DNA of 64,000 nt from Escherichia phage E26: the sequence record MN655998.1; one strand, given 5' to 3'. The notes below the pieces were generated by a model, which made no database searches, had not been told where the DNA came from, and saw only the letters and a program-made list of their open reading frames with translations. Below, piece after piece: positions 22,851-41,679 of this stretch; within the stretch, counting starts at the first letter, position 1; each line of letters begins with the position of its first letter. The position numbers and the translations under genes were made by a program.

Positions 22851-23324
22851 TTACTCCTTATTTTCGCGCTCGTACTTTTCGAAATAAAATTCTACTGGCT
22901 GGTCATTAATTGACAGCAAGCCAAAGCGTTTAGCCGCTCGCAATCCCATATTGCGCTGAATGTACTTCTGGAAGTTCTCGCGTATACACTTACGCCAGTA
23001 TTCTAAGCCCATACAGCTTTTATAAAGATTGCATTGCACACACGCCGGATTCATGTTATCAAGTATATCATGTTCCGGTTTATGCATTCCTACAACCTTA
23101 TACTTCCACGATCCATCATCATTACGGGCAATTCGTCCATTTTCATCATAGACTACCTTTGAGCGTCGCAATACTGGTTTGATGTGGTCTGCGTGCCAGC
23201 GATCCCCTAGTTCCTCGCCACAATAGGCACAACGTCCACCATATTTCATTTTCAGGATCTGGCGTTGCTCTTTCTTTGACAATTTTTTAGGTTTAGGGGC
23301 TTTTGCCCCTTCATTATCACACAT
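22851..23324 (-). CDS. HNH endonuclease
   Basis: CAYCGEEL ... WHADHIKP ... N ... CVQCN: HNH motif with two CxxC pairs; directly downstream of ligase gene. Confidence 0.6.
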   Translation of the reverse strand: MCDNEGAKAPKPKKLSKKEQRQILKMKYGGRCAYCGEELGDRWHADHIKPVLRRSKVVYDENGRIARNDDGSWKYKVVGMHKPEHDILDNMNPACVQCNLYKSCMGLEYWRKCIRENFQKYIQRNMGLRAAKRFGLLSINDQPVEFYFEKYERENKE

Positions 23325-24819
23325 CGAATACCTCTTTTACTGTATTTGCAGTGGTCTTGTCGTAGCGAATACGTTTGATGATTGGGAGAAATAAAGAGAA
23401 CTCCGGTTCATCTTCTTTACGTGATTTGCTGCGGATATACCCGTTGCATGTCATCTCAATGACTTTTCCAATCAGGTTATGACGATCAGCCCATAACATT
23501 TCTCGGTCGAGTTCATTTCTACGATCGAACGGAATTACACGTTCAATACCATCATCACCTTTTTCGGTTGTAGTGTCGGTTAATCCAGATCCGGTGTTAG
23601 TCATCATTCGTCCGCACGCACTACGGACAGTAAAACCGCCTACCTTATTGGGGTCTTTACTATGCGGATATACATCAACAATTTCCGCGTCGAAGTCAAT
23701 CACTTCTTTAAATTTAACCTGATCTTTACTACGGCGATCTTCAAATACACCATGTAAATTTTTAAGGATAATACCTTCTAAGCCCATGTTTACATAGCGA
23801 TGATATACTTCGCGAGCTTCGTCTATATTGTTAACTACAGTGTTTTCGATTATCTGAACACGAGGATCGTTAAGTTCTTCAACAATCTGTTTTAGTTCTT
23901 CGAATCGATCTTTATATTGCTTCGTTGCTTTCTCGTTTCCGTAATACACATCACGGTCGATAACATCCCAGACAGTGTAAACAATACATTGGGCTTCTTC
24001 TTTTGGAATAGTTCCTTTCAGTGATTTGTTGAGGATACCATTTCCGGTCTGACGATCTGCAACAACGGATTCTTTTACTGCTTCCGCTACTGGAGTTAAT
24101 GGCATTTCCTCTTCTTCAAATATCCATGACAGAGTACCATCATAAACGCTCTCAACGAAGTTCTGCGCTGGTGTTTGTGAAAGGGTAGGCATATATACCA
24201 ATTCGCCATCTAGAACAATTCCACGGCCTCGTAGACGCTCTAAAACCGCAAACAAATCATCAAGCCCTTGATAGGTATTACCTGAGCGGGTATAGATTGC
24301 TAATGTTTCCCCGTCAATATCAGCCATACCACGAGCGCCATCGCTTTTAAGTTGTGCATACGCCGGATATTTGATATTGGCAATAGTCTTATCAGAACAT
24401 GACGATGCAAGGTGGCACGGTTGCTGAGGAATCAGTTTCTTCCATACCTTGTTTGCAGTGGTAGCGGAACAGCCGCATTCCAGATCACGATTCAGGACCA
24501 TCATCGCAACTTTAGCATCATCCTCTGACAAGCAAGTCAGAGTATCGGTAACTAGCTGTAATGCTGCATTACCAGTTACTTGACGCGTGGCAAGTTTATT
24601 TTTAAAGACCTGTAATGCACCGGATAAAGACAATACAGACGAATAGCGAGATGGTTTATCGTATTTCTTTACGCCAAACGTAACCTGTTTGCAATATGCC
24701 AGATAAAAGCATTCTTTCAGCGTTTCATTGCTCGCGGATTCTTTCAGGATCTTTTCTTTCAGCGATGTTTTGTCGGTTGCTGCAAGCTGATTAATGATAT
24801 TAAGAATTGACATTTTCAC
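23317..24819 (-). CDS. 30: ATP-dependent DNA ligase gp30
   Basis: 500 aa; adenylation KxDG motif AQLKSDGAR; size and synteny with T4 gp30. Confidence 0.85.
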   Translation of the reverse strand: MKMSILNIINQLAATDKTSLKEKILKESASNETLKECFYLAYCKQVTFGVKKYDKPSRYSSVLSLSGALQVFKNKLATRQVTGNAALQLVTDTLTCLSEDDAKVAMMVLNRDLECGCSATTANKVWKKLIPQQPCHLASSCSDKTIANIKYPAYAQLKSDGARGMADIDGETLAIYTRSGNTYQGLDDLFAVLERLRGRGIVLDGELVYMPTLSQTPAQNFVESVYDGTLSWIFEEEEMPLTPVAEAVKESVVADRQTGNGILNKSLKGTIPKEEAQCIVYTVWDVIDRDVYYGNEKATKQYKDRFEELKQIVEELNDPRVQIIENTVVNNIDEAREVYHRYVNMGLEGIILKNLHGVFEDRRSKDQVKFKEVIDFDAEIVDVYPHSKDPNKVGGFTVRSACGRMMTNTGSGLTDTTTEKGDDGIERVIPFDRRNELDREMLWADRHNLIGKVIEMTCNGYIRSKSRKEDEPEFSLFLPIIKRIRYDKTTANTVKEVFDV

Positions 24820-25279
24820 CTCGTTTTGTTAAACGTTCACGAATATCATTGAGGATACTACAAAATTCCGATTCAGTCAATATAGTCTTTAACGGATCAG
24901 TTCCACCTATACTATGACGTAATTTCTTATTTCCGGTCGAGAGTAATGCTTTACAAAATTCTGGGTTATTCCGTGCCATCGTAACAAATGCCAGATGTAC
25001 CAGTCTGTAATAATGCTCACTCATTCGATGAATCGGGCGACCCTGAAAATATAACATGTGATTCTCAATCTTTTCAGTTCTTCCGGTTCTTTTTGCTTTG
25101 CCACCATGCATCAAAAAGATTTCTCTTTGTCTCTGAGGGTTCTTAAATCTTAGCCCCTGTAAAAATCCTTCTGTGCTGTTAATATCGCAACCAAATAGAC
25201 GGAATGGTCTTTTATTGAAATTACTCAATTCACCAGATGGATAAGGTCCACCCGCATAGATATCAATTTCAGAAGTCAT
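24800..25279 (-). CDS. hypothetical protein (159 aa)
   Basis: ORF track; upstream of ligase in same operon. Confidence 0.45.
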   Translation of the reverse strand: MTSEIDIYAGGPYPSGELSNFNKRPFRLFGCDINSTEGFLQGLRFKNPQRQREIFLMHGGKAKRTGRTEKIENHMLYFQGRPIHRMSEHYYRLVHLAFVTMARNNPEFCKALLSTGNKKLRHSIGGTDPLKTILTESEFCSILNDIRERLTKRGENVNS

Positions 25280-25433
25280 TGAAACTAATCTCGCTAATCA
25301 GAGAGAACGGATCATAATCGTCATGAGGAATATCGACAGTAATCGAATGAGGATTTACCCATACACCAAACTGGTCTTCTTCGGTGAATACTTCGGTATG
25401 GATTTCGTGGATGTTTACATTCATAGTTTTCAT
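25269..25433 (-). CDS. hypothetical small acidic protein (54 aa)
   Basis: Hand-translated MKTMNVNIHEIHTEVFTEEDQ... Confidence 0.3.
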   Translation of the reverse strand: MKTMNVNIHEIHTEVFTEEDQFGVWVNPHSITVDIPHDDYDPFSLISEISFNDF

Positions 25434-25485
25434 AATAAAATTCCTTAATAATCAATAACTTACAAAATCATATAGCCAAAATATA

Positions 25486-25506
25486 GGCGGGATTATTTCC
25501 CGCCGT
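25486..25506 (-). terminator. hairpin GGCGGGA-ttat-TTCCCGCC + T-rich tract (minus)
   Basis: GC stem downstream of gene 31. Confidence 0.4.
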
Positions 25507-25515
25507 TTAAAATCA

Positions 25516-25839
25516 TTAACCGTAAACTACCACAATATTCTGTTTGTGCGTTACAGTCCATTTCAGGTCGATCTCTTCTTCCTTCTTAACGCCGTTAATA
25601 ACGTCTGGATGAGGAACTTTATTAAGTTTCCCATGAGGAAGCAATACAGTCTTGCCCAGCAATTCTTTATCAACGTTATCACCGATATCAATAATCTTAC
25701 CGACTAAAGGAATCTCTCCCATAGTTCGTTTTTGCTCGATGATAATACCAAAATCGCTCTTTACTTCGGTCCCTGCGCTTTCCGCTTTAGCTTCAATGAT
25801 CACATAGTCACCAAGTGCTTTAGGAGTTTTAACGGTCAT
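25516..25839 (-). CDS. 31: co-chaperonin gp31 (GroES-like)
   Basis: 107 aa; GDYVIIEA ... mobile loop ... LPHGKL pattern like T4 gp31/GroES; late-promoter-like TATAAATA upstream. Confidence 0.7.
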   Translation of the reverse strand: MTVKTPKALGDYVIIEAKAESAGTEVKSDFGIIIEQKRTMGEIPLVGKIIDIGDNVDKELLGKTVLLPHGKLNKVPHPDVINGVKKEEEIDLKWTVTHKQNIVVVYG

Positions 25840-25875
25840 AATTTTCTTACCTCTTCAATTCATCTCAATAGTAAA

Positions 25876-26493
25876 TTATTTATATTTCGCGACCTTTGGA
25901 TTTCTCCGCAGACCGGAATGTATTTGCGCTATACAACAATAAGAAACATTAAACATATCAGCTATAATTTGCTTCTTAACTTTTCCTTTAAGCCGCATTA
26001 TTTCTTCGACTTGCGCATTTGTCAGTTTTGCCCGTGAGTGGTTTTCACCGACATTGTTATTGAGTCCAGTTCTAAATGAATGTCTCATATTTTCTAGTAA
26101 GGTTACTATTTCTAGATTCCACACATAATTGCAGGTTTTTACACCATTGATGTGATTAACCTCAAGTCCGGTAACGTCTCCTAGAAATGCATTTGCTACA
26201 AGTCGATGTATCTTTTCGGCTTTAACTGAGATTTTACCATTGTCTTTTTGTTTTGACAATGTTGAATAATAATATCCATATCGGTCTAAAATTGGTTTTA
26301 TTATTTTACCAGCACGTTTTTGTTTTACGAGCTTAATATTACCGGGAGAAACTTCTCTATAAAATTCGATACTTCGGTCAATAGATCTCAATCTACCATA
26401 ATTAGAGATTTCATACCACGGATAACCTACAGCTTGTCTCCATTCTTCCGGCGCTGGTAATACGATATTATCATCTTTTGTTTCCATTGTCAA
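25876..26493 (-). CDS. HNH homing endonuclease (NUMOD-like N-terminus)
   Basis: WYEISNYGRLRS motif; HNH core EVNHINGVKTCNYVWNLEIVTLLEN; inserted between gene 31 and cd region. Confidence 0.65.
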   Translation of the reverse strand: MTMETKDDNIVLPAPEEWRQAVGYPWYEISNYGRLRSIDRSIEFYREVSPGNIKLVKQKRAGKIIKPILDRYGYYYSTLSKQKDNGKISVKAEKIHRLVANAFLGDVTGLEVNHINGVKTCNYVWNLEIVTLLENMRHSFRTGLNNNVGENHSRAKLTNAQVEEIMRLKGKVKKQIIADMFNVSYCCIAQIHSGLRRNPKVAKYK

Positions 26494-26816
26494 CTGCCAC
26501 CGTAAATTTCGACGATCTGCGCTGGAGTCAGCCCGTCTACATTAATCAGACTATCAAGCCCAAAACTACGGAAACCTTCAACTGCAATTTCATATACTGG
26601 CAAAGATGTTTCTGAGTCTTTACGCGGTTTTTCAACATTCGGAACTAACCACTTTTCGTATGTTTCGAAAGGCATCAGTGCCGGATCTCGCGTGGCGATC
26701 ATCTCACGGACAGTACCATCTTTCTTAGTAAACTGCAAAGAGTGAGTACCGACCGAAAACATTTTCTTTAGTGCTTCACGAAGTGCGATATTATCAACTT
26801 GTTCAGTCATTATCAA
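26490..26816 (-). CDS. hypothetical protein (108 aa)
   Basis: ORF track; overlaps cd stop. Confidence 0.45.
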   Translation of the reverse strand: MIMTEQVDNIALREALKKMFSVGTHSLQFTKKDGTVREMIATRDPALMPFETYEKWLVPNVEKPRKDSETSLPVYEIAVEGFRSFGLDSLINVDGLTPAQIVEIYGGS

Positions 26817-27309
26817 TACCCTTCAAATCAGTCAATAATGCTTTTGGAATACGCGTGATCGTAATATCTGCATTATTCAGAATATCAGCCCAATCACGCC
26901 CACCATTTCGATCATATGTGTCGCAATAGTATAGATGTTTAATTCCACTGTTTGCAATTGCTTTAGCGCAATCTGGACACGGTGAAGCAGTACACCACAT
27001 ACTAGCGCCTTCAATCGATACACCGCTACGGGCAGCAAACAAAATAGCATTTAATTCAGCGTGGATCTCGTTTTTCTGTGACCATGCACTATGCTCTGGT
27101 CGTTTTTCTGGGATCATTTTGCCGTCATCATCCAGCCAACCGTTTTTATGTGCATGACAGCTACAATTTACTTGCCCTGCTGGAGTTCCGTTAAATCCAG
27201 TAGAAATGATTCGCCCGTCTTTTTCGATCAGTGCGCCTACCTTCCACGAAACACATTTAGAGTTCTTTGCGATCAGATAGGCGATCTGCATGTAAGTTTG
27301 TGACAACAT
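26803..27309 (-). CDS. cd: dCMP deaminase
   Basis: HAELNAI and PCPDCAKAI zinc-binding motifs. Confidence 0.85.
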   Translation of the reverse strand: MLSQTYMQIAYLIAKNSKCVSWKVGALIEKDGRIISTGFNGTPAGQVNCSCHAHKNGWLDDDGKMIPEKRPEHSAWSQKNEIHAELNAILFAARSGVSIEGASMWCTASPCPDCAKAIANSGIKHLYYCDTYDRNGGRDWADILNNADITITRIPKALLTDLKGIDND

Positions 27310-27330
27310 AATATAATCCTCACATATTAA

Positions 27331-27534
27331 TTAACCGTATACGCGAAAGTATTCTACTGACCCGTCGCTATACTGTTTTACATTGAATGTATTCACACCA
27401 TGATTATTTCTCATGATGACATATACACTACGACGTTCATCGCTAAACGGCATAACTGGTGCGGGTTCAATATCAACATTAAAACCACGTTTAGCAAGTG
27501 CTTCGCCCAATTTCTTGATTTTATCGGTAAACAT
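27331..27534 (-). CDS. hypothetical protein (67 aa)
   Basis: ORF track; ATG overlaps pseT stop. Confidence 0.45.
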   Translation of the reverse strand: MFTDKIKKLGEALAKRGFNVDIEPAPVMPFSDERRSVYVIMRNNHGVNTFNVKQYSDGSVEYFRVYG

Positions 27535-28433
27535 TAAAAGTCTCCGTAGTTAACCTGAAAACATTCTACACCAATTGAGCGGTACATGTCAACCACTTGA
27601 TCACGATCATCTACTGCCAACACAACATGATAACGTGGTGCAATTTCAGAGAAGAAAATCTCTTTCTTCACTTCATGATCAGGACGACGATCATTAGTTT
27701 CACGTTGAAAGTGATCACTCGGTTCAATACCCTGTTCACGCAACCATTGCAGAGTATCTTCTTCGCAAACATCCTCACGCCCTGAGCATGTAATGATACG
27801 ATAACCATTATCACGATACAGTTTAAGCATTTCGATAACTTGCGGACGCGGTTTATCTTCTTTGACCTTTGTCCAGTCAAACGGATGACGACCGCCCTTA
27901 TCCGCTAATGTTCCATCAATATCAAAGATCACTGCCTTCGGCAGCATGGTATTCGGTTTGTATACTTCTTGACCCATATATTCCTGCATCAGATAAAATT
28001 GGTTACGCAAATGAGAAAGTGGAATTGCTTTCTCGCCTCGATAGAAATTACGTTTCTTTAGTGTCTCAAATGATTCATTGAACACTTGTTCAGTATACAC
28101 CGCGTTAAATTCTTTTGCAAGTTCTTTGTAGAATACACGATGTTTTTCTTTCAGGTTGGTATCGGAGATAATGATACTCAATCCGCGTGATAGAGTCTCG
28201 CGAGCAATCATTCTCTGAATAGACTCTACCAGCTTTTCCTTTTCCTTAGTATATTTGTATTTCAAAGGTGAGTCAACACCAAACAACATAAGACGAAGAT
28301 CATCACGATTCACATTACGATAATTACTAAACCGTTTACATGTTTCCATAGCCCATGTAGTTTTACCGGACCCAGAACAACCAACGGTTAAAATCACTTC
28401 ACATTTCGGCATTATTTCTCCTTCGGTTTGCAC
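27534..28433 (-). CDS. pseT: polynucleotide 5'-kinase/3'-phosphatase
   Basis: P-loop GCSGSGKTTW; phosphatase DxDGT motif VIFDIDGTLA; C-terminal IGVECFQVNYGDF as in T4 Pnk. Confidence 0.85.
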   Translation of the reverse strand: MQTEGEIMPKCEVILTVGCSGSGKTTWAMETCKRFSNYRNVNRDDLRLMLFGVDSPLKYKYTKEKEKLVESIQRMIARETLSRGLSIIISDTNLKEKHRVFYKELAKEFNAVYTEQVFNESFETLKKRNFYRGEKAIPLSHLRNQFYLMQEYMGQEVYKPNTMLPKAVIFDIDGTLADKGGRHPFDWTKVKEDKPRPQVIEMLKLYRDNGYRIITCSGREDVCEEDTLQWLREQGIEPSDHFQRETNDRRPDHEVKKEIFFSEIAPRYHVVLAVDDRDQVVDMYRSIGVECFQVNYGDF

Positions 28434-28864
28434 CGTTCCTCATTAAGTTCTTTGCGATAATAACACAGGATCAACTTACTTTCAAGTGTATATCTCTTAA
28501 TATCAGCCAACCAGACTCTAAATTTTTGGGAGTCCTCCCACGACATAGAAACTCTAGGTTTACCGTCTATTGTATCCACTTTCAGGTCAATGTCAACTTT
28601 TTCTATTGGTGCTGGTAGTGGAGGATGTAATTTCGGTTCCTGTGAATAATGGTCCATTGTACACGAAGAAAGAGCAAATACAATAGGCACAGCGAAGACA
28701 TGGATTATGGCGGTCTGAAAATTCTTATGTGCTTTCTTAAACATCCAGTGTATCACGAAAATTGAAAACACCATCAGGATAATAATGCTTGCACCTATCC
28801 ACAGATAATCAACCAGATTAAAATTGCTTATCTGCTCTTGTGTAGGCAATATTTCTATGCTCAT
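28412..28864 (-). CDS. putative o-spanin-like lipoprotein (internal signal peptide with LSSC lipobox)
   Basis: MFKKAHKNFQTAIIHVFAVPIVFALSSC lipoprotein signal; Pro-rich mature part; adjacent to pseT as T4 pseT.2/pseT.3 spanins; true start uncertain. Confidence 0.35.
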   Translation of the reverse strand: MSIEILPTQEQISNFNLVDYLWIGASIIILMVFSIFVIHWMFKKAHKNFQTAIIHVFAVPIVFALSSCTMDHYSQEPKLHPPLPAPIEKVDIDLKVDTIDGKPRVSMSWEDSQKFRVWLADIKRYTLESKLILCYYRKELNEERCKPKEK

Positions 28865-29184
28865 TTAGTAGCCTCCTTTAATTCTTCGGTAAACTCCTTA
28901 AATGAGTCATTAAGCTGTTTCTCTACCAACCTGGGTTTTTGTGCTACTACATAGCCTCGTGTAGCGTCTTTCATTGCTTTGTTTTGTTCTTCTGCAAACT
29001 TAGTTCTTATTCCGTACATCTCTTTTTGCAGCGAGTCTACGACCTTCATCTTTTCATCTGTCTTTTTCTTATACTCTGTAAATTCCTGATTCAGTCGATC
29101 TACCTCCTTTTTATTTTCCCACCACATATTGCCACCGACCCCCAGCAATACAGAGATGATAACAATGTATATCAGCTTTGACAT
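28861..29184 (-). CDS. putative i-spanin-like protein (N-terminal TM + coiled coil; start at MSKLIYIV)
   Basis: TM helix IYIVIISVLLGVGG then charged helical domain. Confidence 0.35.
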   Translation of the reverse strand: MSKLIYIVIISVLLGVGGNMWWENKKEVDRLNQEFTEYKKKTDEKMKVVDSLQKEMYGIRTKFAEEQNKAMKDATRGYVVAQKPRLVEKQLNDSFKEFTEELKEATK

Positions 29185-29228
29185 ATTACCCCCAACGACA
29201 AAAGGCGGGGAACTAGCCCCGCTTATTA

Positions 29229-30398
29229 TTACCAATCAATCTTATCAGCCGGAATCAGTTTCTTATAATTCCGTAGATAGTAAGTTTTCATTGAATCCAG
29301 AATACGGTCATAATCAAGACCATCAAATGCAATCATCAGACACATGAAAATATATGCTTGTGCATCACCATGTTTACGCGATTCGATAGTCGCATTGGAT
29401 GCATATGTCTTTCTATCTTCTCCCGCGTGTGCGTTATAAAACTCTGTTGCTGTCGTAAAGGCATTGCGAAGAATAGACCTGAATGCTTCCTCGAATAGCT
29501 CGATTCGTTCCAGTGCTTCCGGTTCGCCTTCATATGCAGCACGCAAATCATCGGTTTCGCTTTCTACGACATAGTAGATCAGGTTATTAGGAAACATCGA
29601 TGTGTTTTTAATGTTATGCACACCAATATACCATTCACTCTTCACTTTGAACATTTGACCGTCTTTAGTGCGTGCAACAATTCCTTCGATGCCTTCTGCG
29701 ATCCGAACTTCATCAAGAATATTGCTAAAACGCGCTGAATCAACCTGTAACGCATTTACCAGATGAGGACGTAGGATTGCGTCCGCAAATAGCATTTGAT
29801 GCGGTACGTACTCTCCTGTGACGTTATGGCGTACATTCAGAAGTGTTAGCGACGGTTCAGAATATTCTACAACAATTCGGTTGCTGGGCGCTGTATATTC
29901 AAAGTTGAAAGTATAATCAGACCCAATATCAGCAATCTTAGCGCGTAGATCCGCATACTTCTCTGAATACAGAAGACCGTTTGCTCTCTCTGCCTGGCTT
30001 GAGTACAAGGCCGCTTTAGACTTCAACTGAACATAGCCGTTATCAATGTATGTGCTTACTAGACTACCGTCCATTTTGTCCATGACCATTTCCACATCTT
30101 CCGGCTTAAAGCGAGCGCGATCATTCTCACCCAAATTAAAAAACTTCTCCATAGGACGAGATGCGATGCGGACCGGACGACCTTTATCGTCAATTTCAAA
30201 CATGATCCCGCGACACTCTAACGCATCTGGTTTATTCCACATTTCAGGTTTGCTCAAGTACATATAGCTAAAAATGCGCATACGGGTTTGCATCGCCGTA
30301 ATTTCATCTTTGTAATAGAACGTATCAGATCCGTCACACAGTGCCATAAGATTTTTGAACAATGCTAAAACTTTTTTGTTGTTTTCTTTTGTTGACAT
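29229..30398 (-). CDS. rnlA: RNA ligase 1
   Basis: 389 aa; YxIFSY, ECRGIMFE, VRIASRPMEKFFNL, KEDGSLVSTY (ligase KxDG) and EGIV motifs as in T4 Rnl1. Confidence 0.8.
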   Translation of the reverse strand: MSTKENNKKVLALFKNLMALCDGSDTFYYKDEITAMQTRMRIFSYMYLSKPEMWNKPDALECRGIMFEIDDKGRPVRIASRPMEKFFNLGENDRARFKPEDVEMVMDKMDGSLVSTYIDNGYVQLKSKAALYSSQAERANGLLYSEKYADLRAKIADIGSDYTFNFEYTAPSNRIVVEYSEPSLTLLNVRHNVTGEYVPHQMLFADAILRPHLVNALQVDSARFSNILDEVRIAEGIEGIVARTKDGQMFKVKSEWYIGVHNIKNTSMFPNNLIYYVVESETDDLRAAYEGEPEALERIELFEEAFRSILRNAFTTATEFYNAHAGEDRKTYASNATIESRKHGDAQAYIFMCLMIAFDGLDYDRILDSMKTYYLRNYKKLIPADKIDW

Positions 30399-30795: not shown

Positions 30796-30845
30796 TATCC
30801 TTTCCTCACGTCACAACAAAGGCGGGATTTCTCCCGCCCACCTTA

Positions 30846-31244: not shown

Positions 31245-31270
31245 CTTGATACTCCTTAGTTGTTTTGGTA

Positions 31271-31306: not shown

Positions 31307-31314
31307 CTGCTTTT

Positions 31315-33894: not shown

Positions 33895-33909
33895 TAATTC
33901 ACCTCACTA

Positions 33910-34077: not shown

Positions 34078-34250
34078 TAGTTCACCTTCTGCTTTTCAAC
34101 ACAGTACAGATTCATAAAGCGTTTATTGTCTTCGCGGATAATCTCGCGAGCTTTAACGCAATCCTGCTTTGTGGAAAATTCAATGCTTGACATATTTCCG
34201 TAATTATACATTGAATTGCTTATTGCAATCAATAACCATACAGTAGCCAT
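34077..34250 (-). CDS. small hydrophobic-N-terminus peptide, tandem paralog b (57 aa)
   Basis: MATVWLLIAISNSMYNYG...LYCVEK; paralog of previous. Confidence 0.4.
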   Translation of the reverse strand: MATVWLLIAISNSMYNYGNMSSIEFSTKQDCVKAREIIREDNKRFMNLYCVEKQKVN

Positions 34251-34417
34251 TATCCGACAACCTCAAAACATTTATCATCAGGAAGAATAGCCCATTCTAC
34301 GCCGTATTCATCCTTAACGTAGTAGCAAGTCCCATCATGTCGAGCATCATATTCATCACCGACAACAAAGCTATCAGCTAGCTCAAAATCTACCGCAACA
34401 CATTTTAATTTTGCCAT
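34250..34417 (-). CDS. hypothetical protein (55 aa; start at MAKLKCV)
   Basis: ORF-track N-terminus reads through the promoter; internal ATG is the likely start. Confidence 0.4.
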   Translation of the reverse strand: MAKLKCVAVDFELADSFVVGDEYDARHDGTCYYVKDEYGVEWAILPDDKCFEVVG

Positions 34418-34448
34418 AATAAAATCCTCATTTGTTTTTGATGGTTGA

Positions 34449-34477
34449 ATTATAGCGGGGATTTCTCCCCGCGTCAA
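34449..34477 (-). promoter_or_regulatory. PeSL early promoter (TTGACG - CGGGGAGAAATCCCCGC - TATAAT)
   Basis: Hexamers plus palindrome, immediately downstream of nrdA. Confidence 0.55.
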
Positions 34478-34485
34478 CACTTATT

Positions 34486-36729
34486 TTACAGCTTGCAAGA
34501 TGAGCACTCGCTAGCGTCTTCCGTACCATCTGCACCATCACGCACGTTAGCGTAATACAGTGTCTTGAGGCCGTAATATTGAGCAAACAACATATCATCT
34601 AATACATCAGCAATATCGACTTTACCAGTCTTATAAGTGCTTGGATCGTAGGATGTGTTGGAACTAATCGCCTGATCTACAAACTTCTGCATGATCGCTG
34701 CCAGTGTCAGATAAGGCTTGTTACCTTTCTTGATCAGTGTCCAAAGCAGGTCAATAACATCAGCATTATTCTCTACGTTCGGAATAACCTGATTAAATTG
34801 CCCTTCTTTCGATCCTTTAACCGATACAATCCCGCGAGGCGGTTCAATACCGTTTGTGCTGTTAGACACCTGAGAAGACGACTCACAAGGCATCAGAGCC
34901 GAAAGCGTACTGTTACGAATGCCATATTTTTTCAGGTCTTCGCGCAGTTCTTCCCAATCCATCTCATACACCGGATCAACCAGTTCATCTACTGTCTTTT
35001 TGTACCAGTCAATAGGAAGTTCACCGCGACCATAACGTGTTTCGTGCATCAGTTCGCAAGCGCCCTTCTCTTTAGCCAGTTGCACACTAGCTTTAATCAG
35101 AGCATATTGCAAGCGTTCAAACGTTTTATGCGTAAACTCGTTAGCGTCTTCATATGTGAAGAAATTATCCGCAAGATATGATGCAAAGTTAGTCACGCCA
35201 ACACCCAGAGAGCGACGTTTTTTGGCTGTCAGAGCTTGTTCTACTGGATAATCCTGGTAATCTAACAAGTTGTCAAGCGCACGCACCATAACCATAGCAA
35301 TGCGTTCTACTTCTTCCATGTTTTCGATATCGAAATTACCTAAAACATATGCTGCCAAAGTGCATAGACTGATCTCTGAATCATCACGACCCATCGGTTT
35401 TGTCGGCAGAGCAATTTCACAACACAGGTTAGATTGTTTAATCGGTGCTACATTACGAATAAACGCCCCGTGATTGTTCATGTTGTCTGTGAACGCTGGA
35501 TAGATTCGACCAGTGTTAAAACGTTCAATTGCCACCGCTAAAAACAGGTCTTCGGCTTTAACACGAGTTTTACGAACACTCGGATCTTTTTCCAGTTTTT
35601 CGTAAAGCTGACGGAATCCTTCCTCATCTCGGAAGTACAGATCCCACAACAAGCCACCCGCAACATCTGGACTAAACAGAGTAATGTAATCCCGTTTAAG
35701 GAATCGCTCTACCATCAGGTTATTAATCTGTACGCCGTAATCAAGATGACGAATGCGGTTATCTTCTACCCCTTTGTTGTTCTTCAACACAATAAGACTT
35801 TCAAACTCTAAATGCCACATTGGGTAATAGAGAGTCGCCGCTCCGCCACGAATACCGCCTTGCGAGCATGACTTAACAGCAGTCTGAAAATGTTTCCAGA
35901 ATGGGATAACGCCAGTATGACGAACTTCACCATGTCCGATCTTAGATCCTTCCGCGCGAATCATACCAGCATTGATACCGATACCAGCACGCTTACTAAT
36001 ATACTTGATGATTGCATTTGCTGTTTCATTGATGCCCTGCAATGAGTCATCACTTTCAATCACCACACACGAACTAAATTGTCGTGTTGGAGTACGCACA
36101 CCCGCCATAATCGGAGTAGGCAGAGAAATTTGCTTATTCGCAACAGCATTATAAAAATCAATCACATGTTCAAGTCGATTTTCTGTCTCTTCTTGATGTA
36201 AGCACATACCGATCAGCATATAAGCAAATTGCGGTGTTTCAATGATTTTCTTAGTGCTGCGATCCTGAACAAGATATTTCTCTTTTAACTGCATCGCACC
36301 AGCGTAGGTCATTTTAAAATCAAGTTTATGATCGATGAATTTCTCCAGATATTCCACTTCTTCACGGGAATACTTTTGCAGAATTTCGCGATCATATTTT
36401 CCGGTTGCAATATTACGCTCAATATGGCTATAAAAATCAATCGGTTGGAATTGACCGTATACTGATTTACGAAGCGCGAACATTGCAAGGTTACTTGCTA
36501 CATATTGATAATCAGGTGTTTCTACAGTAATGTTATCTGCGGCGACCTTAATCAATACTTTCTGGATATCATTGGTAGACATACCTTCTGTCAGAAGTGG
36601 TTCAACCATATCAAACAATTCATATGGATCAACGTTATGACCTTCGGCTGCCGCTTCCAGAATTTTCATTACTTTTTCTTTTTCAAACGGAACAGTCAGA
36701 CCGGAAGACTTAACAACATTTTTAATCAT
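34486..36729 (-). CDS. nrdA: ribonucleotide reductase large (alpha) subunit
   Basis: 747 aa; N-terminal ATP-cone, catalytic Cys motifs, C-terminal CxxC tail. Confidence 0.9.
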   Translation of the reverse strand: MIKNVVKSSGLTVPFEKEKVMKILEAAAEGHNVDPYELFDMVEPLLTEGMSTNDIQKVLIKVAADNITVETPDYQYVASNLAMFALRKSVYGQFQPIDFYSHIERNIATGKYDREILQKYSREEVEYLEKFIDHKLDFKMTYAGAMQLKEKYLVQDRSTKKIIETPQFAYMLIGMCLHQEETENRLEHVIDFYNAVANKQISLPTPIMAGVRTPTRQFSSCVVIESDDSLQGINETANAIIKYISKRAGIGINAGMIRAEGSKIGHGEVRHTGVIPFWKHFQTAVKSCSQGGIRGGAATLYYPMWHLEFESLIVLKNNKGVEDNRIRHLDYGVQINNLMVERFLKRDYITLFSPDVAGGLLWDLYFRDEEGFRQLYEKLEKDPSVRKTRVKAEDLFLAVAIERFNTGRIYPAFTDNMNNHGAFIRNVAPIKQSNLCCEIALPTKPMGRDDSEISLCTLAAYVLGNFDIENMEEVERIAMVMVRALDNLLDYQDYPVEQALTAKKRRSLGVGVTNFASYLADNFFTYEDANEFTHKTFERLQYALIKASVQLAKEKGACELMHETRYGRGELPIDWYKKTVDELVDPVYEMDWEELREDLKKYGIRNSTLSALMPCESSSQVSNSTNGIEPPRGIVSVKGSKEGQFNQVIPNVENNADVIDLLWTLIKKGNKPYLTLAAIMQKFVDQAISSNTSYDPSTYKTGKVDIADVLDDMLFAQYYGLKTLYYANVRDGADGTEDASECSSCKL

Positions 36730-36740
36730 ATTACCTCACT

Positions 36741-37043
36741 TCATATATCAAGCGTATTTTCTGGAGTATCGCCGAAAACTCTATTAACGAGATCCGCCAA
36801 TACTTCACCGTGGCATTTCTTAGGGTAGCAAGTACAACCTAAGCGCATATGTCTTAATACTTCTAAATGCGCTCGTGTTATCTCACCATTTCGAATCTTA
36901 TTATACAACCACTCTTTGTATAATGCAATAGCTTTCTCGCGTCCGTATTCTTTGGCGGTGTATGGATTTCCCCACATAGTACCACGCTGAATATTAACAT
37001 CAAAATCGCTATTGTACTTGTTTACAACGCGGCATATTTTCAT
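36741..37043 (-). CDS. DUF4326-like protein with C-terminal ...ENTLDI tail
   Basis: WGNPYT ... LGCTCYPKKCHGEVL pattern; C-terminal motif shared with gp33-like protein. Confidence 0.4.
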   Translation of the reverse strand: MKICRVVNKYNSDFDVNIQRGTMWGNPYTAKEYGREKAIALYKEWLYNKIRNGEITRAHLEVLRHMRLGCTCYPKKCHGEVLADLVNRVFGDTPENTLDI

Positions 37044-37078
37044 TTGATACTCCTGGCGGGGATTTCTCCCCGCCTTTG

Positions 37079-38299
37079 TTAGACTGCCATTTGAGCGGTG
37101 ATCGCTGGATGGCTTTGATAGTTGTGAATTTTAAAGTCTTTCGGAGTTTTTGTCAATACCTCCTCTAAAGATTTAAATTCCGGCAACTCAATTGTTGGTT
37201 TATCAAACGGAACACGGTTTAATTGCTCCATAACTTGATCAAAATGGTTTTTGTAAATGTGAGTATCTCCACCAGAGAAAATCAGTTCTCCTACCTCAAG
37301 ATCACACATTTTCGCTATGATGTGAGTTAACAGCGCATAGCTGGCGACGTTAAAGGGCAAGCCCAAAAAGCTGTCTACGCTTCGCTGAAACCACATACAA
37401 GACAGTTTACCTTCATTGACGTAGAATTGCACGAAAGGATGACATACACCTAATACAGCATTATGTGTTCCTTGTACGTTCCATGAGTCAATAATGATCC
37501 GGCGATCCGTTGGATTGTTTTTAATTTGTTCAATCACGTTTTGTAACTGGTCTTCCCAAATCTTCGGGCGATAGACATATTCTTCATCGTCTTTAGTGCT
37601 TGATGTGTCTACGTCCATACTAACAAACATCGTGGTATCCGGTGCTAAAATGTCGCCACCCAGATAATCACTATCAAGCAGATAATCGAAATAACCACTA
37701 TCTACCCATTCCTGGAATCCCCACAAGCAATATGCATCATTAACAAAATTAGATTGAGTCTTCCAGTGGTCTGCTACCAGAATACAATCAAACTCTTCAT
37801 AAATCATACCACGCCAGATAGCACATAAACGGTCTTCTGTTTCATTGGTTGGCGTAAAGTCTTCTACCCACGGGTGTTTAAATGTATGTGTATATTTGCT
37901 CTTAACACGCTTAATTTTGATCTCACCGTGTGGATGAATCGGTTTGCGTCGCCATGCCATGCCATACATATTCCCAACATTATAACCATTGAATCGCAAA
38001 GGATTCTTTTCTTTCATATCAAGACAGTTGCCGCGCCAAATGTCGAAGGCTTCTTCGTCAAACTTACCGCGTGTAATTTCCTGTAAGCGACGGCGGTCAA
38101 GTGATCCCTCCATAAACCATAGCAATTCGCCAATTACAGAGGCTGTAGCCATCTTTTTAGTGGTAAGTAAGGGGAAACCCTTGCTTAAGTCAATTCGCAT
38201 TTCTGTACCGAATTTAGAGAGCGTACCTACCCCAGTTCGGTCGTCACGAGGCCAACCATTATCAAGAACATCACGCAATAGTTTCAAATATTCTTTCAT
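37079..38299 (-). CDS. td: thymidylate synthase with ~110-aa internal insertion
   Basis: ThyA motifs DDRTGVGT, ELLWF, PTDRRIIIDSWN, CHPFVQFYV, DSFLGLPFNVASYALL; uninterrupted 406-aa ORF. Confidence 0.8.
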   Translation of the reverse strand: MKEYLKLLRDVLDNGWPRDDRTGVGTLSKFGTEMRIDLSKGFPLLTTKKMATASVIGELLWFMEGSLDRRRLQEITRGKFDEEAFDIWRGNCLDMKEKNPLRFNGYNVGNMYGMAWRRKPIHPHGEIKIKRVKSKYTHTFKHPWVEDFTPTNETEDRLCAIWRGMIYEEFDCILVADHWKTQSNFVNDAYCLWGFQEWVDSGYFDYLLDSDYLGGDILAPDTTMFVSMDVDTSSTKDDEEYVYRPKIWEDQLQNVIEQIKNNPTDRRIIIDSWNVQGTHNAVLGVCHPFVQFYVNEGKLSCMWFQRSVDSFLGLPFNVASYALLTHIIAKMCDLEVGELIFSGGDTHIYKNHFDQVMEQLNRVPFDKPTIELPEFKSLEEVLTKTPKDFKIHNYQSHPAITAQMAV

Positions 38300-38633
38300 C
38301 CCACATCACCTTTTTCTTGTTGATTGCTTTCTTACGCAGTTTTGCTACTGTCTCGTCAATATCGATAAAGACAACGCCACGGTCGAATACAGTTGCAGGT
38401 CTTGAGATATCGCTATTTTCTTGCACAGGAAGCCATGATGCGCTCGCTTCATCATAGAGATATTGTAAACCGTAATAATCTACGGCTACTGCGTAGTTTT
38501 CACTGGTAGCTGACCATAATTGAATAATACCGACTTTCATTATTGTTCCCGTCCGCAATGTAAGCACCGGACTACCAGCAAACATCAAAGATTCACCACA
38601 ATGTTTGCACTCATAATCTGTCAGAATTTTCAT
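38271..38633 (-). CDS. hypothetical protein (120 aa)
   Basis: ORF track. Confidence 0.4.
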   Translation of the reverse strand: MKILTDYECKHCGESLMFAGSPVLTLRTGTIMKVGIIQLWSATSENYAVAVDYYGLQYLYDEASASWLPVQENSDISRPATVFDRGVVFIDIDETVAKLRKKAINKKKVMWDERIFETIA

Positions 38634-38634
38634 G

Positions 38635-39216
38635 TTACGCCTTCTTACGTTCTAAAATTTGTTCGCTGATCAGGTAATCATCAAGGAAGTAATTATGTTC
38701 TTCTTTTGTTGCAAAGTCAAAATATAATTCCTGAATCATTTCCTTAGAGATACCAACATCATATTCAAATGGATCGTTGATCCCTGAACGTTGAACATAC
38801 GTTAACACAATACGGTCCGCAAAGTCAACTGCTTTTTCAATCAGGGAAGGTCCACCGATAACGCTTACCATACCTTGCAATTTCTCTATGACTTCCAATA
38901 AATCCTTCAAACCACCATCATTAGTAATCGCGGTATACACATCAGGATGTTCGCCGTTTTTTGCTTTCGGTGCTGGCTTACTGGTATCGGTGCTAACAAC
39001 CACATTCACACGACCTTCCAGTGCTTTAGGGAGACTTTCAAAGGTATTACGTCCCATTACAACCGCCGCAAGATCAACATCTCCCATAGTGCGCATTTTA
39101 AAGTTTTCCATGTCCTTTTTGATTGGACGTCCCCACGGTAAGCCGCCTTTAAAACCAAACGCCCAATTTTCATCCGACATTTTAGTGTCACCAATCGCAA
39201 ATACACATTGAATCAT
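38635..39216 (-). CDS. frd: dihydrofolate reductase (start at MIQCVFAIG)
   Basis: FGFKGGLPW, GRNTFESLP, VIGGPSL DHFR motifs. Confidence 0.8.
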   Translation of the reverse strand: MIQCVFAIGDTKMSDENWAFGFKGGLPWGRPIKKDMENFKMRTMGDVDLAAVVMGRNTFESLPKALEGRVNVVVSTDTSKPAPKAKNGEHPDVYTAITNDGGLKDLLEVIEKLQGMVSVIGGPSLIEKAVDFADRIVLTYVQRSGINDPFEYDVGISKEMIQELYFDFATKEEHNYFLDDYLISEQILERKKA

Positions 39217-39230
39217 AATATAATCTCCTG

Positions 39231-39560
39231 TCAAATCAGTTTAAAGAAGTTTTCGTTTACATTTTCTTCGGTGATTGCTGTCTTAAATTCTTGACCGTTA
39301 TCCGGTGTGATGAAATAACGGTCAGAATAATCACGAAAACGTTTTAAGTGAGATAACCCAACATTAACACCATTTTCCCAAAAACGAAAGGTAATCATTT
39401 TTGGTTCATATCGATAGTCGCTGGTTAACACAGTACCATCACCGCGACGGGCTTCATAAACCGTAATACATTCACGATTAGCGGCTTTAAGGCATTCTTC
39501 AATAGTGCCACACGAGATAATACTTACTTTTTCATCTACGATTTGCTCTACAGTCCACAT
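39231..39560 (-). CDS. hypothetical protein (109 aa)
   Basis: ORF track. Confidence 0.45.
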   Translation of the reverse strand: MWTVEQIVDEKVSIISCGTIEECLKAANRECITVYEARRGDGTVLTSDYRYEPKMITFRFWENGVNVGLSHLKRFRDYSDRYFITPDNGQEFKTAITEENVNENFFKLI

Positions 39561-39615
39561 AATATAATCCTCTCTTCGTTTCGATGTTTGTATTATACAT
39601 CATCTGTGTTCGGCG

Positions 39616-39945
39616 TCAACCTTTTTGTTCCATGAAAAGCGGTGCTGTTTCTTCTTTCAGTTTAATAACTAGCGCGGAAACTTCATCAAGAAAATCTTTT
39701 TCCATATGAGCAAGCATTGATTTAGAATCTTTGATGACTTTCAAAGAATATTCACTTAGATTTCCGTTTCCTAACAATAATGCAGGATACACACTATGTG
39801 GGATCTCGATTTCATGATATTCGCTCATAGTATAATATTTGTGAATTTTTAAATCTATATTTCTTCGTTGTACGTCCACATCAGCAATGACATACAGAAG
39901 TTCGATTTTATCGCTTTTCTGGGAAAGGGTAGCATTCAAAAACAT
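39616..39945 (-). CDS. hypothetical protein (109 aa)
   Basis: ORF track; RBS GGAGGAT. Confidence 0.45.
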   Translation of the reverse strand: MFLNATLSQKSDKIELLYVIADVDVQRRNIDLKIHKYYTMSEYHEIEIPHSVYPALLLGNGNLSEYSLKVIKDSKSMLAHMEKDFLDEVSALVIKLKEETAPLFMEQKG

Positions 39946-39974
39946 TGTTAATCCTCCATTGTTTCGATGTGTGC

Positions 39975-40002
39975 ATTATACATTACCACATAAGCATGTC
40001 AA
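39975..40002 (-). promoter_or_regulatory. early promoter (TTGACA-16-TATAAT)
   Basis: Consensus hexamers upstream of 39616 gene. Confidence 0.5.
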
Positions 40003-40025
40003 CATCTTTTCATAAATTTTTAGGC

Positions 40026-40056
40026 AATAAAAAAGCCTCCCCGAAGGAAGGCTTTA
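40026..40056 (-). terminator. intrinsic terminator downstream of gene 32 (stem AGCCTTCC/GGAGGCT, T-run)
   Basis: Hairpin followed by TTTTTTATT on minus strand. Confidence 0.55.
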
Positions 40057-40063
40057 AAATTCA

Positions 40064-41038
40064 TTACATCCCTAACAGAGCGTCAAGATCATCCAGATCA
40101 GAAGCGGAGGAAGTACCGCCACCCAGGTCCAGAGATGCCATCAGGTCATCAGCGGAAGAATCTAACGCCGTGCTAGCTGCGTTAATACCAACTACAGTGC
40201 TAGCTGCGGTCATACCAGAATCGAATGCATTCATCTGTGCGTCAAAATCGTCAAGCTGGCTGTTAATCGCTGCCGCAGCACTGGAAGCCGCAGCACCAGC
40301 TACCATAGAAACGCCCATAGTTTTCTTAAATTTGGTTTCCAGTTCATCGAACGGTTTAAACTGGCTAGGCGCTACAATCTCACTCAGATCAACCATGTTT
40401 TCCATCAGATATTTCTGATATGCTTCGTCTTCAATTTTCGGAAGCTGTGATTGCTGCATGAAACGAGAATCATCATAGTTCTGGTGTTTATCAACCTTCT
40501 TAGCTTTCAGGAGGAAGTTAGCACCGGAGAACACACAAGTTACATCTACCGGAACTTCGCCCATATCGGTATTCACGTTCACCATCGCAACGATCTTATC
40601 ATAAATTTTCTGACCGAAGCGGAATTTGAATACCTTACCTTCGTTTTCTGGTGCTTGAGGATCTTTCAGTACCAGAATATTTGCGTAGTAAGACGCTTTA
40701 CGTTTAATCAGTTGCCATTCGGTTTTATCGGTATTGTACAGATCTTTTTCGTTAATATATTTGCACACCGGGCAAGAATCAAAATCACCGTGGGTGCTGG
40801 AGCAGTTTTCCCAATACCATTTTCCATTAACTTTGAAGGAATGGTTTACCAGTTTCACAATCGGCAGACCGTCTTCTGTCTTAGACGGCAGGAAGCGAAT
40901 CAGGGCTTCACCGTTACCCGCTGCATCAGTCTTAATCTTCCACTCTTTCGGATCTTCTTTGGAGAAACCGTTGCCACCTTTCAGTGCGGCCAGTTGAGCT
41001 TGCAGTTTGGAGCTATCTTGACGTTTAAACATATTCAC
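40064..41038 (-). CDS. 32: single-stranded DNA-binding protein gp32
   Basis: 324 aa; IRFLPSK, NGKWY...CSSTHGD, CPVCKYI zinc motif, acidic C-terminal tail. Confidence 0.9.
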
Positions 41039-41085
41039 TATTCCTTCTTTTGATTAATTTACTAGACTATTATACAGATTTAAAT

Positions 41086-41679
41086 TTACTTGTCAAATAC
41101 TTTATTAATTATATCTAACAACTTTGGTTTTCTATTTTCAAATTCTAACATTTCTTCGGGAGAAATGTCAACTACTTCTGTTTTATGAAAGAAATCAGGA
41201 TCTATTGCATCGGCAACAAAGTTTCTAGCTAACGCAGCGGCCTTTTCGTAATCATAAAGACCTAGATACAAAAGTTTCCCTCTATCAACCTGAATACATG
41301 CTTTATATTTACCATCTCGTTTATAAAAACTTACTCCGATATACTCAGACGTCTTACCTTTTTGCTTTCCAACATTTCTTGAGTTTTGTTGGTCGGTCGC
41401 ATCTCTCAAGTTTTCAATCCGATTATCGGTTATAACTCTGTTTACATGGTCAACACATTTTGGCATATATCCATGATGCATGAAGAAAATTATTCTATGC
41501 TCTTTGTGCAATCGACCATCAAACTTAACTACTCTATATCCAGTTCTTGGATTTACATAGCCCGCTCTAGATCCGACTTTATGCTTTCGGTTTGTCGATA
41601 TCTTGCGAATCAGCTTACCGTTATCATATTTAAAGAGTTCATGACAACGAGCATACAATTCAGGGTCATATGTTTTCAC
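41086..41679 (-). CDS. HNH homing endonuclease with AP2-like DNA-binding domain
   Basis: HNH core DHVNRVITDNRIENL; YIGVSFYKRDGKYKA AP2-like; occupies the 32/59 junction where T4 carries segG. Confidence 0.65.
   Translation of the reverse strand: MKTYDPELYARCHELFKYDNGKLIRKISTNRKHKVGSRAGYVNPRTGYRVVKFDGRLHKEHRIIFFMHHGYMPKCVDHVNRVITDNRIENLRDATDQQNSRNVGKQKGKTSEYIGVSFYKRDGKYKACIQVDRGKLLYLGLYDYEKAAALARNFVADAIDPDFFHKTEVVDISPEEMLEFENRKPKLLDIINKVFDK

Follow-up and report, generated by a model that had tools for sequence, protein, structure and literature searches.

The window, a stretch of 64,000 nucleotides from Escherichia phage E26, derives from a Krischvirus, a T4-type coliphage resembling RB49, Phi1 and JSE. 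As the preliminary description had reported, three HNH genes are present, all on the minus strand and all intact as open reading frames and in translation: HNH1 (22851..23324), HNH2 (25876..26487) and HNH3 (41086..41679). In Pfam, each scores above the curated threshold for a recognised homing-endonuclease family (HNH for HNH1, HNH_3 for the other two), and a tblastn search within the window revealed no additional paralogues of any of them. The GIY-YIG Seg family was considered and rejected, as neither Pfam nor PHROG returned a GIY-YIG match for any of the three. Comparisons were made with about 58 Krischvirus genome records that are collinear with the window. The set lacking HNH2 comprises 48 records (47 genome records and one 1.5-kb RB49 fragment), and the HNH2 junction was mapped with a 16-genome alignment together with raw junction sequences.

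HNH1 directly follows gene 30, the ATP-dependent DNA ligase gene (23317..24819, minus strand; DNA_ligase_A_M, phrog_114), as had been described. It begins at an ATG 8 nt within the 3' end of the ligase gene, overlapping the ligase stop codon in the sequence GATGTGTGA, with a ribosome-binding site, AAGAGG, located within the ligase gene. The product is a 157-aa zinc-finger HNH nuclease with the pattern CxxC...WHADH...N...CxxCN, matching Pfam HNH PF01844 (27 bits, cut-off 21.4) and phrog_2118, 'HNH endonuclease' (E=5e-54). All family-invariant residues are kept and the HNH motif is intact, and the subfamily is set apart by its C-terminal part, a conserved helical stretch with FYFEK as its last residues. 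Examination of the protein for a separate sequence-reading domain yielded neither NUMOD nor AP2 nor a helix-turn-helix module. The gene lies on the border of a hyperplastic region, where it adjoins ORF 22499-22843; the presence of this ORF varies among relatives, and a promoter-stem-loop occurs immediately after it.

HNH2 is preceded by gene 31.1, a WYL_2 reading frame (26490-26816), and followed by gene 31 (25516..25839, minus strand), identified as a GroES-like head-assembly co-chaperonin gene by phrog_931, a weak Cpn10 match and the annotation of relatives. It had been placed between gene 31 and the cd region; the gene 31 side of this placement holds, while 31.1 is the immediate neighbour on the other side and cd (26803-27309) lies one gene further upstream. 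The reading frame had also been extended to a TTG at 26493, a less likely start than the ATG at 26487, 2 nt past the 31.1 stop, where the start is annotated in relatives. The resulting 203-aa protein comprises NUMOD4 (44.2 bits, cut-off 23.4, E=2e-11), bearing out the NUMOD-like N-terminus noted earlier, HNH_3 (35.4 bits, cut-off 24.8, E=8e-9) and C-terminal helix-turn-helix-like helices, and the residues invariant in its subfamily (N111, H112, N114, N120, N124 and N133) are all present. This is the module order of I-HmuI and the phrog_59 NUMOD4 + HNH_3 phage endonucleases, in which an N-terminal beta domain with EW..GY..Y.(I/V)SN.G precedes the HNH_3 core and the C-terminal helices. I-HmuI from Bacillus phage SPO1 (PDB 1U3E) is matched by sequence at E=0.0015 with ~22% identity, and with an AF2 model of HNH2 (pLDDT 80) it was the only significant PDB match in Foldseek (E=1.4e-6, 197 columns). 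Nonetheless, the I-HmuI gene resides inside a group I intron, whereas HNH2 is free-standing between genes, and an Asn-His pair, invariant in the HNH2 subfamily, replaces the Asp-His of I-HmuI. The I-HmuI structure paper reportedly assigns metal binding to this Asp, where HNH2 has Asn. I-HmuI nicks one strand.

When compared to RB49-type genomes, HNH2 constitutes an insertion of 620 bp (25883..26502) within GAAATTTA^TAAATAATT, where gene 31.1 ends. In the raw junction sequences, each end of the insertion bears an imperfect repeat, CGAAAT(T)TA. The same sequences contain TATAAATA upstream of gene 31 (25877..25884, minus strand), a match to the T4-type late-promoter consensus; it is native sequence kept within the final codons of HNH2 and, going by the T4 consensus, a putative late promoter of gene 31. 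HNH2 is carried by 11 of about 58 Krischvirus records, corresponding to nine distinct genomes. Linked to it is a diverged tract of ~260 bp (25624..25882, minus strand) spanning the intergenic region and codons 1-72 of gene 31, where identity is 98-100% in carriers and 73-83% in empty genomes, with flanks at 95-100% in both. The two versions of the tract are ~20% different, the 34-40 nt involved affecting 24-29 codons synonymously and 5 non-synonymously. Across the whole collection, all 11 carrier records are at least 98.7% identical in the tract and 46 of the 48 records without HNH2 fall at 82.7-86.1%; the other two, UPWr_E1 (93.9%) and JK32 (88.7%), are partial mosaics, and the full tract was found in none of the 48. 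Gene 31 is presumed to be the target gene of HNH2, and a cleavage or resistance site is predicted within 25624..25882.

HNH3 is situated between gene 59, encoding the helicase loader (41666..42343, minus strand; Pfam T4_Gp59_N and T4_Gp59_C), and gene 32, encoding the 322-aa single-stranded DNA-binding protein (40064..41032, minus strand; Pfam gp32, E=1e-51), which lies downstream and has its true ATG at 41032 and the N-terminus MFKR. The gene starts with GTG, preceded by a GAGG ribosome-binding site, and its 197-aa product matches Pfam HNH_3 (46.9 bits), with the D-H...N...N pattern kept, and phrog_99 (E=2e-53). The Pfam AP2 match (28.3 bits, E=2e-6) is below the curated cut-off of 33.3; the AP2-like domain reported earlier is backed by phrog_99 and by sequence similarity to the AP2 repeat of WRI1, a factor of plants (7WQ5, E=4.6e-5). 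The element is an insertion-replacement of ~590 bp (41097..41690), ending where native TTGACAAGTAA resumes. Through it, the final 8-9 codons of gene 59 change from KEISQLKAETNS to KEISRLKGENI, a replacement that creates the ribosome-binding site and start codon of HNH3. A promoter scan placed a sigma-70 promoter of gene 32 at 41069..41096 (minus strand; TTGACA, 16-nt spacer, TATAAT, 12 of 12 consensus positions). This promoter is native, with the same sequence in empty genomes and an early promoter annotated at the site in RB49, and its -35 hexamer lies within the final HNH3 codons. HNH3 is carried by 11 records among the ~58 genome records, and two alleles have been distinguished, one in the window and phage 011D4 (99% identical) and the other in ten further records (~84% nt and 85% aa identity to the first), with the greatest differences in the AP2 domain and residues 39-60. 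Paralogues 40-43% identical occur elsewhere in other Krischvirus genomes. A long linked flank tract was not found for HNH3, the consistent difference being confined to ~27 nt at the gene 59 end, and its target is therefore a guess.

HNH2 and HNH3 occur as precise insertions in about one fifth of genomes that are otherwise collinear and 96-99% identical, which is the sporadic presence at a conserved locus among close relatives that characterises homing genes; for HNH2, the gene 31 tract adds a co-inherited diverged flank. Mixed states exist even within the species Krischvirus RB49, where RB49 carries neither gene, PHB13 carries HNH2, 011D4 one HNH3 allele and kvi the other. Both cassettes vary less than their carrier genomes: in six genomes whose flanks share 97.6-98.3% identity, copies of the second HNH3 allele share 99.8%, and HNH2 is 98.8% identical with flanks at 97.6-98.0%, its dS being 0.045 against ~0.09 for the backbone. 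Such near-identical copies across different backbones suggest recent spread. Neither gene has a promoter of its own, each retains the promoter of the downstream gene in its last codons, and both possess DNA-binding modules typical of homing enzymes. On these sequence comparisons, the assignment of HNH2 and HNH3 as free-standing homing endonuclease genes is well supported.

Spread of the two as accessory genes through ordinary homologous or illegitimate recombination, with the nuclease uninvolved and the gene 31 tract as hitch-hiking donor DNA, is considered unlikely. Modular shuffling mediated by promoter-stem-loops has been documented for RB49 and phi1 (PMC2839356), and ORF 22499-22843, with the promoter-stem-loop directly after it, is an indel of this kind. 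The short imperfect repeats at the HNH2 insertion ends also favour such an origin, as does the single tract boundary common to all carriers; the distal end shared by all nine distinct genomes (~25624) could reflect one import followed by ordinary recombination instead of repeated homing. However, HNH2 and HNH3 are promoter-less in-line insertions that lack flanking promoter-stem-loops, they encode complete nucleases of the site-specific type with intact motifs, and their cassettes are more uniform than the carrier backbones. Moreover, the synonymous-dense tract lies exactly beside HNH2, a pattern known from T4 segG, segF and mobE (PMC2988022).

It is quite unlikely that HNH2, HNH3 or both are present in the window as inactive remnants at a late stage of the homing life cycle. 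Among the nine distinct genomes with HNH2, G37-3 and FL20 contain frameshifts in the gene, which would fit the decay phase of homing elements and could also be sequencing errors. In addition, HNH2 of the window departs from its subfamily consensus at non-invariant positions adjacent to the motif (KTCNYVWNLEI versus KTDNRVENLEW), and the region in which the HNH3 alleles differ most includes the AP2 domain. Both window genes are nonetheless full length with every family-invariant residue present, HNH2 has a dN/dS of 0.09, and the near-identical copies on different backbones suggest recent spread.

HNH2 and HNH3 can be compared with several known elements. HNH3 has the architecture of the AP2-HNH homing endonuclease genes reportedly described by Magnani and colleagues in 2004, an HNH_3 core followed by an AP2-type DNA-binding domain, and the literature search found no biochemically characterised AP2-HNH member close to it. 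AP2-HNH elements have been listed in RB49 (ORF040c) and RB43 (ORF027c) (PMC1524935); the 59/32 locus of HNH3 differs from that of ORF040c, and RB49 lacks HNH3. As pointed out in the preliminary description, this is the junction at which T4 carries segG, whose product cuts gene 32 (PMC2988022, Table 1), and free-standing endonuclease genes in T4 typically lack a promoter and contain promoters that serve the downstream gene (PMC2988022). HNH3 resembles segG in its junction, in being free-standing and promoter-less, and in having a promoter of gene 32 within the 3' end; SegG is nevertheless a GIY-YIG enzyme and HNH3 an HNH-AP2 enzyme, two unrelated nuclease families, and the same junction has been colonised independently and not through homology. 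According to work attributed to Liu and colleagues in 2003, SegG is said to cut inside gene 32, 332 bp from the segG insertion site, whereas HNH3 has no linked gene 32 tract. The Mob genes of T4 (mobA-E) likewise encode HNH enzymes, stand free between conserved genes of the T4 type and show co-conversion of flanking markers (PMC2988022). HNH2 and HNH3 are similar to these in kind, as exemplified by MobE, between nrdA and nrdB. An HNH or homing endonuclease gene also occurs between nrdB and nrdA in some Krischvirus genomes (e.g., G2494, JSE and phiS), and this site is empty in the window.

The preliminary description had proposed that all three genes are probably free-standing homing endonucleases, naming universal presence at identical positions as an observation that would speak against this. 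Comparison of the junctions among relatives yields presence and absence for HNH2 and HNH3 (11 records each) and sustains the proposal for these two; HNH1, which occupies a constant position in 58 of 58 Krischvirus genome records, displays the universal distribution instead of a sporadic one. Its dN/dS is 0.033, next to 0.037 for the ligase and 0.023 for gp59, and purifying selection on HNH1 is as strong as on the ligase. A metagenome contig contains a copy 69% identical, overlapping the end of a ligase gene 71% identical; in this distant relative, HNH1 has diverged in step with the ligase. No linked diverged tract was seen when the flanks of HNH1 were compared among relatives.

That all three are currently active homing genes directed against related phages is accordingly given a low probability. 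The intact HNH motif of HNH1, its location at the hyperplastic edge beside a variably present ORF and its inclusion among the putative mobile elements of RB49 listed in 2006 (PMC1524935) are consistent with such activity. They are set against its presence at the same position in every sequenced genus member, which leaves no known empty allele to invade, a dN/dS at the level of essential neighbours, divergence parallel to that of the ligase, and the undetected NUMOD, AP2 and helix-turn-helix modules together with the unlinked flanks. HNH1 is best regarded as a fixed nuclease under selective maintenance that is not currently mobile. Taking into account the three genes jointly, the best explanation, to which a probability of about 0.78 is assigned from the sequence evidence, is that HNH2 and HNH3 are free-standing homing genes and that HNH1 is fixed and vertically inherited with the ligase.

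Under this explanation, the ~0.6 kb cassettes of HNH2 and HNH3, placed between conserved gene pairs, would be translated from the transcript of the upstream gene. In mixed infection with a cassette-free relative, the enzyme would introduce a nick or a cut in the empty allele, and repair through recombination, as is typical of T4-type phages, would copy the cassette and flanking DNA into the cut genome. The HNH2 site is predicted in the first ~220 bp of gene 31, and the diverged, mostly synonymous stretch found there in every carrier would shield the carrier from its own enzyme. For HNH3, the simplest candidate site would be the 59/32 junction itself, which is rewritten and split by the insertion. 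HNH1, translationally coupled to the DNA ligase and fixed in the genus, would be inherited vertically under strong purifying selection.

As to why HNH1 has become fixed, a nuclease presently useful to the phage is more likely than an element fixed long ago, and fixation may be compatible with homing in the past or with action on phages beyond the sampled genomes. It can be suggested only tentatively that HNH1 has been domesticated to work with the translationally coupled ligase, and that selection has retained it in all RB49-like phages, in a pairing older than the genus. If so, the two could, for example, nick and seal DNA together during replication, repair or recombination, or alternatively be directed against host DNA or phages that co-infect the cell. 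Phages and prophages encode small zinc-finger HNH nucleases of the McrA-like and Cas9 type (PF01844), such as the GVE2 and Gme HNH nicking enzymes, from which HNH1 differs as a distinct subfamily with its FYFEK end and a predicted fusion of its expression to that of DNA ligase. Apart from the metagenomic copy, its closest relatives are less than 45% identical. A terminase-associated HNH role of the HK97 gp74 type, in which the gene adjoins terminase genes in cos-type phages, was rejected. HNH1 follows the ligase gene, and two relatives from lambdoid or siphovirus-type phages were inspected and map to replication or nin regions, not beside terminase genes: the HK225 homologue is located between replication genes and nin genes, and the Solent homologue between the primase gene and a ParB-like gene.

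The region between 22 and 43 kb of the window was matched by 59-68 phage records in megablast searches at identities of 96-99%, nearly all of them from Escherichia and Shigella phages of the genus Krischvirus (RB49, Phi1, JSE, GEC-3S, ECD7, KFS-EC and others). The gene order is of the T4 type on the minus strand, with cd, 31.1, 31, 30.3 and 30 (DNA ligase) being followed further on by rnh, dsbA, 33, 59, 32, frd, td, nrdA and nrdB. Three minus-strand ORFs, HNH1 (22851-23324), HNH2 (25876-26493) and HNH3 (41086-41679), carry HNH domains above the Pfam curated cut-offs, and no further copies of their families were detected elsewhere within the window. All three had been described as probable free-standing homing endonucleases, a reading which holds for HNH2 and HNH3, both sporadic in relatives, but fails for the ligase-linked HNH1. 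HNH2 and HNH3 are ordinary cases of a well-known phenomenon, and in several GenBank relatives they are already labeled "HNH endonuclease" or "HNH homing endonuclease". The comparisons rest on an annotated phage collection, replacing IMG/VR and the JGI metagenomes; IMG/VR queries with gp59, Cd and the carrier-type gene 31 core returned nothing beyond ECD7, a single 150-kb contig and fragments, and a JGI metagenome scan for further relatives gave no matches.

HNH2 is a predicted new member of the I-HmuI-like free-standing homing endonuclease genes. As the preliminary description had proposed, a NUMOD domain (NUMOD4) is present in its N-terminus, beside HNH_3. The protein matches I-HmuI by sequence, I-HmuI is also the sole significant PDB match for a structural model of pLDDT 80, and every residue invariant in the subfamily (N-H-I-N-G...N...NL...N) is retained. 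Translation probably starts at the ATG at 26487, 2 bases past the gene 31.1 stop codon, in agreement with the annotation of relatives. An alignment of 16 genomes has revealed the cassette as a 620-bp insertion within GAAATTTA^TAAATAATT at the end of gene 31.1, altering the C-terminus of the 31.1 product from ...EIYK to ...EIYGGS. The last HNH2 codons (KYK and stop) are supplied by native TATAAATAA, so that the T4-type late-promoter consensus (TATAAATA) ahead of gene 31 is preserved; a consensus scan detected no promoter belonging to the HNH2 or HNH3 ORF above shuffled expectation. HNH2 occurs in only 11 records, representing 9 distinct genomes, at 97-100% identity. Its copies are 98.8% identical and the linked gene 31 tract 99.3%, compared with 97.6-98.0% for the carriers' own flanks, and the dS of HNH2 is half that of the backbone. 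Single-base indels near or inside the HNH motif frameshift the gene in G37-3 (deletions at positions matching window 26140 and 25882) and in FL20 (insertion at 26175), these being either decaying copies or sequencing errors.

The tract extends from the HNH2 insertion to approximately 25624, thereby covering the intergenic region and codons 1-72 of gene 31, which encodes the co-chaperonin. In the 16-genome alignment, carriers of HNH2 are 98-100% identical to the window here and genomes lacking it (empty genomes) only 73-83%, whereas the DNA on either side is 95-100% identical in carriers and empty genomes alike. The differences amount to 34-40 nt, with 24-29 synonymous codons and five amino-acid changes (D29S, F30M, D54E, N55T and L72M). 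In the full collection, identity of at least 98.7% over the tract is confined to the 11 records with HNH2, all of which show it; 46 records without HNH2 are at 82.7-86.1%. Two empty genomes are mosaic: UPWr_E1 is of the carrier type except at 25717-25783, and JK32 is of the carrier type in 25624-25670 only. Their gene 31 alleles may be recombinants, or resistant alleles remaining after loss of the element. Taken together, the linkage and the mosaics indicate that the HNH2 target should lie in the tract, in one of two places: the core at 25717-25783, whose carrier type is common to no empty genome, or the distal stretch at 25624-25670, a location that would make both mosaics resistant alleles lacking the element. 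With the tract, the predicted site of cleavage or resistance is confined to about 185 bp of an essential co-chaperonin gene. This prediction is neat and open to direct testing, with natural carriers, empty genomes and the UPWr_E1 and JK32 mosaic alleles at hand as substrates.

HNH3, with an HNH_3 and an AP2 domain, is a putative new member of the AP2-HNH free-standing homing endonuclease genes. The AP2-like domain noted earlier falls below the Pfam cut-off but finds support in a match to WRI1, a plant AP2 factor. Eleven records contain the gene: 011D4 has a 99% identical copy, while ten have a second allele at about 84% DNA and 85% protein identity. The two alleles agree fully over residues 1-38, diverging most strongly at residues 39-60 and in the AP2 domain (33/42 identical). 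Copies of the second allele from six genomes share 99.8% identity, compared with 97.6-98.3% for the flanks in those genomes. At the 59/32 junction, which reads ATATCTCAATTAAAAGYCGAAACAAATAGTTGACAAG in the HNH3-free RB49, the cassette takes the place of the final 8-9 codons of gene 59, with TCTCAATTAAAAGCCGAAACAAATAG becoming TCGAGGTTAAAAGGTGAAAACATATGA. This rewriting keeps the gp59 C-terminus similar and creates a GAGG ribosome-binding site and a GTG start. The cassette ends where native TTGACAAGTAA resumes, and the TTGACA at this end forms the -35 element of a gene 32 promoter that matches the sigma-70 consensus perfectly and is annotated in RB49. In T4, the final part of the endonuclease gene segG likewise contains a gene 32 promoter. 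As previously pointed out, segG occupies this junction; it targets gene 32 (PMC2988022) and is a GIY-YIG element, whereas the present one is of the HNH-AP2 type. A co-conversion tract in gene 32, sought by analogy with segG, was not found; sequence variants in the 5' part of gene 32 do not track HNH3, and the cassette is not accompanied by a longer linked tract in its flanks. The simplest target would be the empty 59/32 junction itself. The gene 32 leader and start region (41033-41085), corresponding to the T4 gp32 translational operator, occurs as two types, GGAATAGTGAATATGTTTAAACGT and GAGGTATAATTATGAACATGTTTCGTCGT, in a comparison with G2494, ELT4, phiS and ECD7, independently of HNH3 presence.

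A 109-aa ORF (39616-39945, minus strand), for which a Pfam search gave no match, lies just 3' of gene 32 in the window; the regions compared with it were L016 16600-18057, L009 34352-35734 and L017 15658-16836. RB49, Phi1, GEC-3S, Skers, Cognac, phiS and ELT4 have a variable ORF of 0.8-1.5 kb at this site. It is a GIY-YIG ORF in RB49 (ORF239c), Phi1 (ORF240) and Skers (Skers_100, which is annotated as such), and the window is empty of it. This variation, together with the 59/32 junction, places nuclease insertion hot spots on both sides of gene 32, which therefore looks like a recurrent target of unrelated selfish nucleases. Two other sites empty in the window are occupied in relatives: nrdB/nrdA, by an HNH or homing endonuclease gene in G2494, JSE and phiS, and rnh/gene 34, by a homing endonuclease gene in PHB13 and ELT4 and by a same-sized ORF annotated only as "hypothetical" in pEJ01. 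Within Krischvirus RB49, a single species by assignment, four states are found, with RB49 having neither element, PHB13 HNH2, 011D4 the window-type HNH3 and kvi its second allele. HNH2 and the HNH3 allele of the window are found together in no database genome.

HNH1 encodes a 157-aa protein with a zinc-finger HNH domain (PF01844) and is a genus-wide core nuclease. Its DNA is present in 58/58 genome records at 96-99.6% identity, invariably after the ligase gene, and by the refutation criterion given with it, the homing role once suggested for HNH1 fails. The ATG start shares bases with the stop codon of the ligase gene (GATGTGTGA), and an AAGAGG ribosome-binding site lies within that gene. The dN/dS across 17 genomes (0.033) matches that of ligase (0.037) and gp59 (0.023). 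Residues C32, C35, H44, D46, H47, N90, C95, C98 and N99 are conserved in the family, as well as a C-terminal FYFEK region. On a metagenome contig, a 69% identical copy overlaps the end of a ligase 71% identical to that of the window, indicating that the pair has been co-inherited over a long time. Matches above 60% identity in the phage collection are confined to Krischvirus; those outside the genus are all below 60%, the best among the matches listed being about 45%, and the approximately 38 non-Krischvirus records listed of 100 all come from small phages (12-67 kb). Two relatives were inspected, with the homologue lying in the nin region in HK225 and between primase and a ParB-like gene in Solent. 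A packaging nuclease similar to HK97 gp74 was ruled out from these two cases, as the homologues reside in replication or nin regions and not by the terminase genes. The RB49 orthologue (ORF212c) was earlier classed as a putative mobile element purely from its domain (Nolan et al., 2006; PMC1524935). The label "HNH homing endonuclease" is unfit for a gene behaving as core, a point of relevance to annotation and phage-therapy genomics.

Directly after HNH1 lies a 114-aa ORF (22499-22843, minus strand; phrog_25625), the equivalent of RB49 ORF211 and itself an indel, missing from Phi1, GEC-3S, ELT4, phiS, Skers, pEJ01, kvi and ECD7; genomes without it also differ in the final 13 nt of HNH1. At about 22455-22490, the ORF is followed by TTGACA-GGGGATC..GATCCCC-TATACT, resembling the promoter-early stem-loop elements reported by Arbiol et al. 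(2010; PMC2839356). Another sporadic insertion is a 100-aa DUF4326 ORF between nrdA and td (36741-37043, minus strand; Pfam E=6.5e-23), fully matched in only 6/58 Krischvirus records, with DNA-methylase ORFs occupying the junction in 011D4. Thymidylate synthase (37079-38299, minus strand) is 406 aa long and of similar length in all relatives; the Pfam profile, of 266 positions, is stretched over residues 2-406, which implies an insertion of about 140 aa. Gene 34, encoding the proximal subunit of the long tail fibre (44697-48131, plus strand), specifies 1144 aa, compared with 1246 aa (3741 nt) in RB49, JSE, PHB13 and others.
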